Of a DNA stretch of 64,000 nt, positions 29,450-34,653 are shown piece by piece. Position numbers and translations under genes: made by a program. Each line of letters opens with the position of its first letter. The first letter of the stretch is position 1. This stretch comes from an uncultured Bacilli bacterium (GTDB taxonomy: Bacteria; Bacillota_I; Bacilli_A; RF39; UBA660): assembly GCA_934098505.1 (NCBI GenBank), contig CAKOOR010000001.1, forward strand, positions 365,534-429,533, given 5' to 3'. The notes under the pieces are model-generated. The model had not been told where the DNA came from. It saw only the letters and a list, made by a program, of their open reading frames with translations, and made no database searches.

Positions 29450-30931
29450 CTACTTTTTAGCTGTAACTTTACTTGTTACAGAAATATCATCGGTTACCAG
29501 AGTACCATTGGTATACTTGCCATCTTTATAAATATAATTTTCTAAATTTCCACTACTAGTGCCATCTTTATAAAATTCGTAATTACCTTTAGTTAAAGAT
29601 TTAGTACTGATAATAAGAGAATTGAAATCATCTTGAGCTTGGAAAGTTAATATTTCTTTATTATCACTATTTAATAAACTAAGAACACTATTCTTTTTAA
29701 CAATATCTTGTAACTTTAGACAAACAGTATAATTTTTCGAACTAGTAACAGGAGTTTCATAAATGTCTTTACCTAGGGCAATTAAGGTACCACCGTTAAT
29801 AGAATAACCACTGGTAGTATCAATTGGCGCATCTTCTTCGGTTCCTATGAGATAAGTTAAGCCACCATCGATGGCAATGTCTTGTTTTGATTTAAGGTTA
29901 GCTTTCGTACTATTTATAAACAAATTGCCATCAACAATATTGATTAAACCACCATCTTCGCTAGTAACGATACCATAATTTTTAGCACTAATATTAACGG
30001 TTCCACTATTTAAAGTAAAATCATTAGAAACAATATTAATGCCTATATTTTGATTGCCATTGATATTTAAAATGCCTGTTCCTTTAAGCTCCAATGGACC
30101 TGTTGAATAAATAACACTATCATAATAAGATGTCCCTTTATCACTTAAACTATTAGTTGTACCTTCTAAAGTTTCTATTTTTAATTTACCGGTTCCTTTA
30201 TTAATGATACTAGCGGTATCTTTAGTGTTTATGGTTATATTATTTAGTGACAAAGTTACATCACCATTACAACTAACAATAATGCTATGACTGAACTTGC
30301 CAGTTAAATTATAAGTGCCACCTCTGGTTATTAAAATATTTTGGTCATAATCATCTAAATTGATATCTTTATCAGTAACTTCTTTGCCATCTAGATTAGG
30401 AATATTTGTATTATTTTTATCGTTATTTTGATTATTATTTTTAGAATTATCTTCAACAATTATATCCGCTGGTAAAAAAGTAATAGGCTTTATAGCAAGA
30501 TATAAAATACTAACAGTTAAACTTAAGCTTAGGATTAAATAAACACCTATTTTAGCTAAAGGAAAAAAAGTTAATTTAAAAGTTAAATAATTAAAGCCGG
30601 AAAATAATAAATAAAATAGTATTTGAATAGATATAACTACTAGAATTGAAGTCACAACAACCGTTATAATTTGGCTGGTTCTACTGGTACTAATTTTAGT
30701 ATTTGTAATAGTATCATTATTATCATAGCCATAACTAGGATAATATGAATCAAAATTACTACCATAATCATAATCGCTATAATTGTTACTGTAACTAGAA
30801 TTGTTATCAAGGTTATTATTAGTTAAATTACTATACAAAATAATACTAAAGCTAGTAAAAACCAATAATAGTGTTATTAATATTATATTTTTATTTTTTC
30901 TTCTCATAAGTTCTCTCCTACACTTTTTCAT
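29450..30931 (-). CDS. Membrane-anchored beta-helix-like repeat protein (putative surface/carbohydrate-binding)
   Basis: N-terminal N/Y-rich region, two TM helices, then repetitive G/T/N/I-rich short strands (ITRGGTYNLTG, TGILNINGNQNIGINIVS, GTVNISAKNYGIVTS) typical of parallel beta-helix proteins. Confidence 0.4.
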   Translation of the reverse strand: MKKCRRELMRRKNKNIILITLLLVFTSFSIILYSNLTNNNLDNNSSYSNNYSDYDYGSNFDSYYPSYGYDNNDTITNTKISTSRTSQIITVVVTSILVVISIQILFYLLFSGFNYLTFKLTFFPLAKIGVYLILSLSLTVSILYLAIKPITFLPADIIVEDNSKNNNQNNDKNNTNIPNLDGKEVTDKDINLDDYDQNILITRGGTYNLTGKFSHSIIVSCNGDVTLSLNNITINTKDTASIINKGTGKLKIETLEGTTNSLSDKGTSYYDSVIYSTGPLELKGTGILNINGNQNIGINIVSNDFTLNSGTVNISAKNYGIVTSEDGGLINIVDGNLFINSTKANLKSKQDIAIDGGLTYLIGTEEDAPIDTTSGYSINGGTLIALGKDIYETPVTSSKNYTVCLKLQDIVKKNSVLSLLNSDNKEILTFQAQDDFNSLIISTKSLTKGNYEFYKDGTSSGNLENYIYKDGKYTNGTLVTDDISVTSKVTAKK

Positions 30932-30985
30932 TTTAATTATTAATTGTGAAGAATTAATGAAAAAAAGGCATATAAGTAGCCTTTC

Positions 30986-31195
30986 TTATGCAAATAGTTT
31001 GTTTAAGACCCCAGCTGCTTCCTCATTAGTTAACGGTAGCAAGTCATTGCCTTCTACTCTCCTAAGTAATAAATCATGATAATCCATTTCGTTAGTTAGA
31101 TAAACATATTTGTGATTGTTGTACTCTATTTCTTTAACTATTAAATAAATTTTACCATCTAAGGTATAAAAATCAACTGTATCCTTTATATTCAT
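30986..31195 (-). CDS. Small DUF1292-like protein (69 aa)
   Basis: KYVYLTNE...LLLRRVEGNDLLPLTNEEAAGVLNKLF parallels the YrzB/DUF1292 pattern seen in the canonical copy at 40919-41197. Confidence 0.35.
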   Translation of the reverse strand: MNIKDTVDFYTLDGKIYLIVKEIEYNNHKYVYLTNEMDYHDLLLRRVEGNDLLPLTNEEAAGVLNKLFA

Positions 31196-31968
31196 AGCGC
31201 TTTACCACTTTCTTCTTGCAAATTTAAGCTTTGAATGTTTTCTTCTAAAATTCGAATTCCTTCAACGTAATCTATTCCTCTTGCACCTTTTTCACCGTCA
31301 TTTTTAGGGTTAACAATAGGCAGACCATACTGCATATAATTTGCATAACCTCGATCAGCTACATCTTTATAAGTACTAAAGTATTTGTACTTGTAAGTTT
31401 CAAGATTTTCCCCATAATAAGTTTCATATAGATTTGAGATTTTTCCACAAAGGCTAATAGCATAAATAGCTTGATCACGGTTTAAATGATTATCTTCGTC
31501 ATTTTTACTATTGTCCATTATTCCCTTAATCAAATTTTCAATCTGAGTTTTATTTTCTTCAGTTATTTTTTCCGGCAATGAAGCATCATCACCAAAATAT
31601 TTTTTTTGATTTATTAAATCATTGATTATATCTTGTGTATCTTTTTTAGCCTTTTCAAATTCTATTTCTGGTTTAGCAATCATTCCTAGCTTTGCTGCTA
31701 CAACTAAAATACTCAAAGCTGCCAATATTTTAAGAAATGTGCGACGATCCATTTTTCTGCTCTGTAAAGAAGCGTTATGAAAAATTTTACCATCATAATC
31801 AATGTTATTATCTTTTAAAGTTTGCCATGCTTCATTTAATTGTCTGCGTCTTTCTTCTGCTTCATGAGCGGCATGGAAATTTTGATACGTTACATTTTCG
31901 ACCTGTCTAACTTGGACTGGATCTATTTTTTGACTATTATTATTTTCTATATCTTCCATTACTATCAC
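31192..31968 (-). CDS. Membrane protein with internal twin-arginine-like signal-anchor (KMDRRTFLKILAALSILVVAA)
   Basis: AGGTGAT lies 5 nt before the 31968 ATG. Residues 73-95 form an RRxFLK motif plus hydrophobic helix. A soluble roughly 160 aa domain follows. Confidence 0.45.
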   Translation of the reverse strand: MIVMEDIENNNSQKIDPVQVRQVENVTYQNFHAAHEAEERRRQLNEAWQTLKDNNIDYDGKIFHNASLQSRKMDRRTFLKILAALSILVVAAKLGMIAKPEIEFEKAKKDTQDIINDLINQKKYFGDDASLPEKITEENKTQIENLIKGIMDNSKNDEDNHLNRDQAIYAISLCGKISNLYETYYGENLETYKYKYFSTYKDVADRGYANYMQYGLPIVNPKNDGEKGARGIDYVEGIRILEENIQSLNLQEESGKAL

Positions 31969-31988
31969 CTACTATAATAATAGCATTC

Positions 31989-33831: not shown

Positions 33832-33941
33832 ATTTATCTCTCTTTCTTTTCGAGATAATAATACAATAAGTACTGTGTCGAATTTTGCCAAATTATAACC
33901 TTAAATAATTTTTTTTAAGAAAAAAAGAATGCGCAAGCACT

Positions 33942-34196
33942 CTACTTATTAATATCTTCTAATACAGACTTTAGAAATGCCAACCCAACTTTCTTTTCTT
34001 CAGGAGTTTTCATTTCTAATAGTTTTATTTTTTTATCTGATTGTTCCTCATAGATGGAATAAAATACTTGAAGTTTATCGTCTTTATAAGTTTTATCAGT
34101 ATAAAGCATATAATTTTTCTGGGTATATTCTTCGTCATAATATGTAGCAATTACATAATACGTGATATTATTTTCAATAAATCTAAAATCTTCCAT
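33942..34196 (-). CDS. DUF1292 (YrzB-like) family protein, second paralog
   Basis: YYDEEYTQKNYMLYTDK...LQVFYSIYEE...LLEMKTPEEKKVGLAFLKSVLEDI aligns to the YrzB pattern FESEDFGKKYVLVYP...ELQAFSF...LHPIETEEEWNMVEEVLNTF. Confidence 0.5.
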   Translation of the reverse strand: MEDFRFIENNITYYVIATYYDEEYTQKNYMLYTDKTYKDDKLQVFYSIYEEQSDKKIKLLEMKTPEEKKVGLAFLKSVLEDINK

Positions 34197-34203
34197 TATA
34201 CAC

Positions 34204-34653
34204 CTACTTTAATTTTAATTCTTTTACTAATTCATCTTCATTTAATTCATCATTATGTTTGAATATTTCAACATTAGGAATAAAATAGATAGTTGGATTC
34301 ATAGTTAGCATCGTTGGATTAACTTGATAGGGCTGATTACTATTACTATCATAAGCAGTGTAGCCATCTACTTTTTTGTAACCGGTCATATCTTTGTGAT
34401 GAATAATATAACCATCTGGCACTTCATAATAAATTTCACTATACTCGGCAAAGACGCCGTTTTTAATATTTTCTTCATCTTCATTGATAACTTGAACTTG
34501 ATGATTCCATCCTAAAATTCTAGTTAGTAAACAAATGTTTTCATTATGATTGACTGTATATTCATTAATTGCGATAGTACCTCCTATGGCAATAGCCACT
34601 GCTAAGGGAGTCACTCCCGCAAATTTTCTTATTCTTTTTTTATCAATTTTCAT
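34204..34653 (-). CDS. Signal-anchored extracytoplasmic protein, unknown function
   Basis: N-terminal hydrophobic segment FAGVTPLAVAIAIGGTIAI. 149 aa. First gene of the minus-strand surface-protein operon. Confidence 0.4.
   Translation of the reverse strand: MKIDKKRIRKFAGVTPLAVAIAIGGTIAINEYTVNHNENICLLTRILGWNHQVQVINEDEENIKNGVFAEYSEIYYEVPDGYIIHHKDMTGYKKVDGYTAYDSNSNQPYQVNPTMLTMNPTIYFIPNVEIFKHNDELNEDELVKELKLK

Follow-up and report, generated by a model that had tools for sequence, protein, structure and literature searches.

A putative sortase-adhesin pair from an Arg-less, class-B-like subfamily in an envelope gene cluster of an uncultured gut bacterium

A His-Cys-Arg active site is the defining feature of sortases, which are drug targets and are in wide use as protein-ligation tools. 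Can an enzyme of this kind do without the arginine? The question is raised by seven co-directional genes at positions 29450-34653 of a 64-kb stretch of contig CAKOOR010000001.1 from an uncultured Bacilli bacterium (hereafter the window, to which all coordinates refer unless another locus is named). All seven (A149, B84, C448, D189, E258, F69 and G493) lie on the minus strand, as originally predicted. The same prediction described D189, a protein of 189 amino acids (aa), as a sortase-like enzyme whose active site is atypical, and C448, encoded just upstream, as an anchor protein without an LPxTG motif. Our analysis supports both descriptions, with C448 as the likely substrate. As judged from sequence, the core of the cluster is a putative sortase-adhesin pair of an undescribed, Arg-less, class-B-like subfamily marked by a Q-T-C motif, present here in its most reduced form. 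The features of this pair are as follows.

32545-33831, minus strand: C448, secreted surface protein with a MucBP domain, putative substrate of the sortase (428 aa when started at the ATG at 33831)
33772-33831, minus strand: signal peptide of C448
32692-32877, minus strand: MucBP domain of C448 (PF06458)
32548-32655, minus strand: C-terminal signal of C448 resembling cell-wall sorting signals (PSDDIYTG, then a spacer, a hydrophobic helix and KIKYARK)
31989-32558, minus strand: D189, membrane-anchored minimal class-B-type sortase homolog (catalytic domain, residues 55-189)
32457-32546, minus strand: transmembrane (TM) anchor of D189 (residues 5-34)
32214-32216, minus strand: codon of His115 of D189 (YGH motif), putative catalytic histidine
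32037-32045, minus strand: codons of Gln172-Thr173-Cys174 of D189, Q-T-C replacing the canonical S-T-C
32016-32018, minus strand: codon of Asp181 of D189, at the position of the catalytic Arg (Arg217 of Clostridioides difficile SrtB)

The fold of D189 was modeled with AlphaFold2 (AF2) from 17 homologs; in the model (predicted local distance difference test [pLDDT], 77.7) an N-terminal helix leads through a disordered linker into a beta-barrel. When this model was compared with the Protein Data Bank (PDB) using Foldseek, the top 19 matches were all class B sortases (E values of 4e−12 to 2e−7), followed by sortases of classes C and A. D189 thus models as a class B sortase, and a non-sortase fold, which would have spoken against the original prediction, can be set aside because the first 19 ranks held only class B enzymes. 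Sequence comparisons gave matches to SrtB entries of the PDB (6e−15) and, with a profile of the D189 family, to C. difficile SrtB (4e−42). The matches to curated families were below their cut-offs, both for TIGR03064 (E = 1.8e−19; 70 bits, cut-off 153.75) and for the Pfam Sortase family PF04203 (E = 8.7e−5; 22.7 bits, cut-off 26.6).

The predicted active-site motifs, IYGH(115)SS and IQTC(174)NES, are indeed present, and the protein ends 15 residues past the cysteine. His115 and Cys174 are invariant in 17 of the 17 D189-type sequences aligned, as is the whole Q-T-C triplet (residues 172 to 174), so that the cysteine motif reads I-Q-T-C and not L-S-T-C. Reviews give the sortase catalytic triad as His-Cys-Arg (PMC11231552), and the arginine is held to be necessary for efficient catalysis according to Marraffini 2004, as cited in PMC11231552. 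At the start of strand beta8, where this arginine is conserved, D189 carries Asp181 and some orthologs Asn or Tyr. A profile alignment with C. difficile SrtB placed Arg217 opposite I182/D181, and in an alignment of 24 SrtB-like sequences the canonical "R-hydrophobic beta8-AK" stood opposite "D-IILV-AK" of D189, which identifies Asp181 as the equivalent of the arginine. The lysine that had been assigned to this position is therefore misplaced. Lys187 was also considered as a stand-in and rejected, since it aligns with the lysine of the (V/H)AK motif that is also found in Arg-containing SrtBs. As to the small size of D189, the alignment shows an internal deletion in the beta6/beta7 loop, where about 30 aa (30 to 40 alignment columns) are missing relative to relatives of 214 to 250 aa, so that D189 is short with its C terminus uncut and lacks the long, helix-bearing loop typical of class B.

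At least 10 species and many metagenome variants have D189 with an unbroken reading frame, and dN/dS was 0.05 to 0.26 between most species pairs, with dS values of up to about 1, so the gene is under purifying selection. Together with the joint loss of sortase and sorting signal described below, this selection is an indirect pointer to the putative Cys-dependent cleavage and transpeptidation activity of D189.

The candidate substrate lies directly upstream of D189, which itself carries an N-terminal membrane anchor, and the 14-nucleotide (nt) overlap of the two genes (32545-32558) is real. C448 had been read as 448 aa, but the TTG at 33891 from which that length is counted adjoins a conserved TATAAT, and the likely start is the ATG at 33831, giving 428 aa. 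From there the protein has an N-terminal signal peptide (MKKILVPVVIALAAVNVNA), a MucBP domain above the Pfam gathering threshold (PF06458; 52.2 bits, cut-off 23; E = 1e−13) and a C-terminal hydrophobic segment (LYALIVSLILLIGA) followed by the basic tail KIKYARK. As had been noted, there is no LPxTG, and DIYTG is the sole correctly placed TG motif. None of the described pentapeptides (LPxTG, NPQTN, SPxTG/PPxTG, LAxTG and LPxTA) is present; the C448 motif, D(D/N)(I/L)YTG, shares only T-G with them. The whole signal, P[SN]D[DN][IL]YTG, spacer, hydrophobic helix and KIKY[AV]RK, is conserved in C448 orthologs of 8 species, and among all the open reading frames (ORFs) of the window, C448 alone has such a C terminus by hydropathy. 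An AF2 model of C448, considered for the fold of its N-terminal domain, was too poor for a fold search (pLDDT, 47.6).

Is the absence of the arginine peculiar to D189? We compared 81 SrtB-like ORFs, all from related loci that were fetched for comparison (L-numbers below; P-numbers are database relatives). The enzymes with S/V/Y/F/I-T-C motifs all had an Arg directly before beta8 (Lys in one case), and 17 of the 18 Q-T-C enzymes had none, the exception being L010_8681. A profile search returned 1,226 proteins at E ≤ 1e−10, and among the matches listed, essentially all of about 120 relatives carried Q-T-C, with Ser (69), Thr (21), Asp (12), Lys (10) or Asn (8) at the position of the arginine. 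In a rough neighbor-joining tree the QTC group formed one clade within the SrtB-like sequences, with the mini-sortases (those of the window clade and L073) as its sister branch. One QTC member, P0160, is extremely common (729 index blocks), and the QTC relatives scored 112 to 122 bits against TIGR03064, also under its cut-off. Judged by these alignments, the missing arginine is a trait of the whole Q-T-C subfamily and not of D189 alone. Nor is this type of sortase confined to the lineage, and D189 appears as a minimized member of a large SrtB-like subfamily. No paper describing Arg-less or Q-T-C sortases was found, though absence from the literature searched is not proof of novelty. Gln172 and Cys174 would share one face of beta7, where Gln172 could assume a role in hydrogen bonding.

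A shortened beta6/beta7 loop has also arisen independently elsewhere, in a canonical SrtB with S-T-C and Arg (L026 7884-8477, 197 aa) and in the sole Q-T-C enzyme retaining the arginine (L010 8681-9250, 189 aa). Two loci, L011 (13128-13934) and L074 (13172-13978), contain a second, divergent sortase-like gene of 268 aa with an LITC motif and Arg/Lys residues downstream, preceded by genes for a DUF4352-like and a Bact_surface_Ig-like protein.

QTC sortases are linked to adhesin-like genes across the family. In L010, the QTC sortase adjoins a VWA/MucBP protein of 1,027 aa with IPDTG, a TM helix and a KKKINL end, and in L080 to L082 VWA/MucBP proteins of 814 to 1,134 aa beside the QTC sortase end in ETIPDTG, a TM helix and KKKMFN. 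The three adhesins of the latter loci, each beginning at 6715 beside P0160, measure 814, 885 and 1,134 aa between identical flanks, a variation likely to result from the number of MucBP repeats. L073, whose sortase is 53% identical to D189, has directly upstream a mini MucBP ORF (7650-8020) with a signal-like N terminus, one MucBP domain and the C terminus ETVATG-LKDYD-LLLINIALLLLMIGV-SKIYEKKNY. This ORF has a good ribosome-binding site (RBS; AAAGAGG) but lacks all three of the start codons ATG, GTG and TTG; translation may begin at ATA or ATT, or the gene may be decaying.

Other neighbors of QTC sortases end differently. Homologs of the N-terminal domain of C448 in L011 (8617-9693) and L074 (8632-9705) end in IIPPNTGID and IIPPNTGI, respectively, and a 146-aa protein of L010 (9341-9781) ends in IPYTGI, in each case without a hydrophobic anchor or charged tail. 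A TM helix and tail hidden by a frameshift after PPNTGI(D) in L011 and L074 was considered and discarded: the hydrophobic-looking frame corresponds to the DNA-conserved promoter and RBS of the next gene, and the two species end identically. An anchorless end right after the TG motif thus recurs beside QTC sortases in three loci and resembles the LPKTSAVK end of AbpA. The AbpA-SrtB system provides a precedent for a sorting signal with a tail of only 3 residues (PMC4974636), and the motif of C. difficile SrtB includes PPxTG (PMC8225981).

Natural losses bear directly on whether C448 and D189 work together. Several lineages lack the sorting signal and have forms of C448 of 391, 388, 400 and 412 aa. 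In L076, the signal has been frameshifted out, with the remnant ...ILLIGAKIKYVRK still readable in another frame, and the sortase is a pseudogene that has lost residues 94 to 162, including the histidine, and has its C-terminal parts in different frames. The signal of L077 is degraded, and its sortase is reduced to 47 N-terminal codons. A149, B84, E258, F69 and G493 are intact in both loci. This joint loss of signal and sortase, with the other five genes intact, points to a dedicated sortase-substrate pair. In no lineage examined was the signal retained with the sortase lost. The opposite state exists in L006, where a clean deletion of about 90 nt has removed the sorting signal and left the RBS and an intact sortase; dS to the sister locus L005 is only 0.10, so the deletion is recent. 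The secreted 391-aa form (L006 2040-2110 versus L005 7900-8015; P0056-P0124) is the variant sampled most often by a wide margin, accounting for about 70 of the 98 clusters listed.

The cluster lies in a housekeeping region of about 27% GC content, flanked by rpsP and a KH-domain gene on one side and by def and ftsW on the other, and the surroundings also include greA, tig, U32 peptidases and a ruvX-DUF1292-mltG group. Its order and orientation are kept in at least 10 species known from related gut metagenome-assembled genomes (MAGs), which are similar to Mycoplasma sp. CAG:956, a clade that we take to belong to the GTDB order RF39. The sequence of D189 is identical on a human-gut metagenome scaffold (293 kb), 98% identical in a Hadza MAG named "uncultured Bacilli" and 88% identical in Mycoplasma sp. 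CAG:956. The window includes ftsW, mltG and a polysaccharide-deacetylase-like gene, and for RF39-type lineages a cell wall has been predicted as well as the retention of sortases, in which they differ from RFN20 and ML615J-28 (PMC10868615); a peptidoglycan wall in the host is therefore plausible from gene content. The remaining features of the cluster are as follows.

34681-34709, minus strand: promoter-like site upstream of A149, TTGAAA-17-TATAAT (consensus match only, 11/12)
34204-34653, minus strand: A149, bitopic membrane protein (TM helix, residues 11-30; outside part, about 120 aa)
33942-34196, minus strand: B84, small cytoplasmic protein, likely DUF1292 paralog (begins 7 nt after A149)
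33926-33943, minus strand: terminator-like hairpin and T-run directly after the B84 stop codon
33832-33897, minus strand: conserved TATAAT (33892-33897) and conserved leader (about 55 nt) ahead of the C448 start
31192-31968, minus strand: E258, bitopic membrane protein (255 aa if the ATG at 31959 is used)
31669-31743, minus strand: TM helix of E258
30986-31195, minus strand: F69, small cytoplasmic protein of a branch of about 70 aa related to DUF1292, ATGA-coupled to E258
29450-30931, minus strand: G493, three-TM membrane protein (extracellular Cthe_2159 domain, 29780-30346)

The ATGA overlap of E258 and F69 (31192-31195) is as real as that of C448 and D189, yet a single seven-gene operon, as proposed before, is doubtful. 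The hairpin after B84 (AGAATG..CATTCT) is conserved in the window, L003, L004, L076 and L077, with paired changes (A-G-A-G-T-G-C/G-C-A-T-T-C-T in the window). Upstream of C448, a TTATAAT and the leader TGGCAAAATTCGACA...TATTGTATTATTATC are near-invariant in 6 to 8 species. Because the conserved hairpin and T-run are followed by this promoter-like −10 element and leader, A149-B84 and C448-G493 probably form separate transcription units. The region at 33832-33943 has no Rfam match and may serve as a regulatory leader, and neither Rfam nor tRNA scans found a match within the cluster.

The other five genes are side-by-side envelope modules, namely the pairs A149-B84 and E258-F69, each a bitopic protein with a small DUF1292-like one, plus G493. 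A149 matched no known family in Pfam or NCBIfam; its orthologs in 9 loci are 44 to 90% identical, and no homology to E258 was found (hhalign, E = 0.1). G493 is the membrane beta-helix protein that had been foreseen, with three TM helices and a carbohydrate-binding-type Cthe_2159 domain (PF14262; 1.4e−26; 93.8 bits, above the gathering threshold of 25.8).

E258 has a cytoplasmic N-terminal region of 75 aa, then the predicted RRTFLK, a TM helix and an outside domain. The twin-arginine character once attributed to this motif did not hold up: a Tat signal was rejected because the motif starts only at residue 75, the RR is lost in orthologs (RV in L003, RD in L005) and the Pfam TAT_signal score (16.3) is below the cut-off of 22.7. 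The protein evolves fast, with orthologs 34 to 97% identical. In L004 (8570-9307) and L009 (8542-9429) its slot is occupied by a protein unrelated to E258 next to a conserved F69, which looks like replacement or extreme divergence. The proteins in these two slots are homologous to each other (E = 1e−13), and that of L009 keeps an RRAFLK plus TM architecture. L078 has an overlapping E258-like/F69-like pair between murD and uvrB with no sortase nearby. L073 keeps the sortase, E258 and F69 and lacks A149, B84 and G493. L073 and L078 have E-slot proteins that are mutual homologs (2e−19) and match E258 only weakly (E = 0.005 to 0.09 in a three-sequence search).

Two DUF1292 paralogs had been predicted. 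This is supported for B84, which has no Pfam match alone but aligns with the ruvX-linked DUF1292 protein of the same genome (40919-41197) over 62 columns (hhalign, 94.9% probability, E = 4.5e−8; hmmsearch, 5e−8); for F69 it stands by transitive evidence only. F69 compared directly with DUF1292 gave nonsignificant E values (hhalign, 0.006 to 0.034), and a single-sequence search of 1.84 billion representatives found 39 small proteins, of which 22 of 36 match Pfam DUF1292 (PF06949; best, 3.9e−7). The canonical copy lies between ruvX (41187-41618) and mltG (39853-40926), and B84 and F69 are not so linked. Each of the three DUF1292-type genes in the window lies beside, or overlaps with, one that encodes a bitopic envelope protein, MltG, A149 or E258 (39853-41618, 33942-34653 and 30986-31968), and this shared adjacency suggests a common partnership, hinting that DUF1292 proteins partner the cytoplasmic tails of bitopic envelope proteins. 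No functional study of DUF1292 was found in the literature. Outside the cluster, a tiny Gly/Tyr-rich membrane ORF of 59 aa on the plus strand between ftsW and def (28527-28706) is conserved at 93 to 97% in every related species and has a weak match (TIGR01732, E = 5e−4, just under the cut-off) to the YjcZ family of sporulation proteins.

Taken together, we consider it fairly probable that C448 and D189 are a dedicated substrate-sortase pair within a conserved envelope gene cluster of a walled, low-GC gut bacterium, with the other five genes as separate modules. C448 would be exported by Sec, with its C-terminal helix and KIKYARK tail keeping it at the membrane, and would present its (I/L)YTG motif to D189. 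D189, as an N-terminally anchored cysteine transpeptidase with a domain of about 135 aa, would use the Cys174/His115 pair to cleave after the threonine (candidate target peptide, NIVPSDDIYTGVKS) and would then transfer the MucBP adhesin to a peptidoglycan precursor. Several points weigh against this explanation. The arginine is absent, the deleted beta6/beta7 loop shapes the substrate groove in solved SrtBs, and the TIGR03064 and Pfam Sortase scores are under their curated cut-offs. Moreover, in the commonly sampled L006-type species the signal is gone and the sortase intact, so that either the deletion happened recently or the sortase has some other role or substrate. Finally, the search for other substrates and sortases covered the 64-kb window only.

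The loss of both arginine and loop could also mean that D189 is crippled or repurposed, acting as a protease (sheddase) that releases C448 or as a noncatalytic binder, without wall transpeptidation. The lineages that lack the anchor and make secreted C448, and the sister-clade substrates that stop right after the TG motif, would fit such a role. We nevertheless regard it as unlikely, given the invariant histidine and cysteine, the purifying selection and the full tripartite signals, a hallmark of wall anchoring, that the QTC subfamily keeps on its large VWA/MucBP adhesins; besides, the short-tailed signal of AbpA is still wall anchored (PMC4974636). It is less probable again that D189 is a polymerizing, pilin-type class B sortase, like Streptococcus pyogenes Spy0129 or the AbpA-specific SrtB, that assembles C448 into fibers or ladders. 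The fold matches include Spy0129 and the SrtB of the pneumococcal type II pilus, the IPxTG motifs of the family are pilin-like (PMC8225981) and AbpA-SrtB makes ladders (PMC4974636), but the cluster has a single substrate gene and no second sortase, no pilin-motif lysine was identified, and the AF2 model of C448 is too poor to test for a pilin fold.

The original prediction saw in the seven genes one lineage-specific surface-assembly module, in which the DUF1292-like and bitopic proteins would assist the sortase. Tight spacing, the two gene overlaps, the order and orientation kept in at least 10 species and the joint presence of D189, E258 and F69 in L073 speak for it. The partial cluster of L073 also speaks against it, as do the intact A149, B84, E258, F69 and G493 where sortase and signal are dead (L076 and L077), the E258-like/F69-like pair without a sortase in L078, the conserved terminator and promoter between B84 and C448 and the sister QTC sortase loci without any of these five genes. 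The pattern of joint loss has already largely refuted such a machine, and we give it very little probability. The slightest chance of all is left to D189 being a decaying, functionless relic: arginine and loop are lost and the gene has decayed in two lineages, but dN/dS remains low across dS values of up to about 1, at least 10 species and many metagenome variants retain an open frame, and the Arg-less state is common to more than 100 diverse relatives linked to intact substrates. Joint loss, the recent deletion in L006, the lack of any signal-only lineage and the dN/dS values together argue against both the dead relic and the seven-gene machine.

We also make, tentatively, a broader proposal, which we rate somewhat short of even. 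The Q-T-C clade, hundreds of proteins from uncultured gut Bacilli, may consist of functional sortases without the arginine, of which D189 is the smallest, that position the substrate and stabilize the oxyanion in another way and recognize IPxTG, PPxTG or xYTG signals, including anchorless ones. One candidate for this other way is an invariant Gln, placed two residues ahead of the Cys, that covaries with the loss of the arginine. If this is true, the His-Cys-Arg rule for sortases needs revision, and protein ligation would gain a natural sortase domain of about 135 aa that has a new motif. More generally, the locus points to a large, uncharacterized Arg-less, class-B-like branch in abundant, uncultured human-gut bacteria that, by the evolutionary evidence of selection, conserved pairing and joint decay, would still serve dedicated MucBP/VWA adhesins. 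With a single small enzyme, its peptide and a handful of point mutants, it makes the dispensability of the arginine directly testable. The locus also brings to light candidate factors for mucus adhesion in RF39-type gut commensals and suggests natural switching of an adhesin between wall-anchored and secreted forms in closely related species.

How does the cluster compare with known systems? Its small proteins recall DUF1292/UPF0473 of the Bacillus subtilis YrzB type, since relatives of F69 match PF06949 and B84 aligns with the canonical copy; however, the canonical gene precedes its membrane partner, whereas B84 and F69 follow theirs, fall below Pfam significance and are not ruvX linked. With the isd-type SrtBs of Staphylococcus aureus, Bacillus anthracis and Listeria (NPQTN, NPKTG), D189 has in common the fold and the GxxFxDYR and YGH motifs, but here there is no isd/NEAT gene and no NPxTN motif, and arginine and loop are absent. 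The AbpA-SrtB system of oral streptococci (Liang et al. 2016, PMC4974636; NF040525) likewise has a dedicated class B sortase beside a single adhesin with a noncanonical signal. The LPKTS and 3-residue tail of AbpA, without a hydrophobic domain, resemble the PPNTGI(D) and IPYTGI ends of the sister clade, whereas C448 keeps a full hydrophobic helix and charged tail and has a MucBP fold as opposed to the helical fold of AbpA; against NF040525, QTC members score 42 to 67 (cut-off 200) and D189 has no match at all. The best profile match and top fold match of D189 is C. difficile SrtB (CD2718; PDB 4UX7 and 5GYJ), which recognizes (S/P)PxTG. That enzyme has S-T-C, Arg217 and a full helix-bearing loop where D189 has Q-T-C, Asp181 and a deletion of about 30 aa, and it differs in motif from the (I/L)YTG of C448, which has no Pro at the canonical position. 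The two enzymes are nonetheless alike in their N-terminal membrane anchor and in having no linkage to heme uptake, and the xPxTG-type motif of C. difficile SrtB is similar to the PPNTG ends found in the sister clade.

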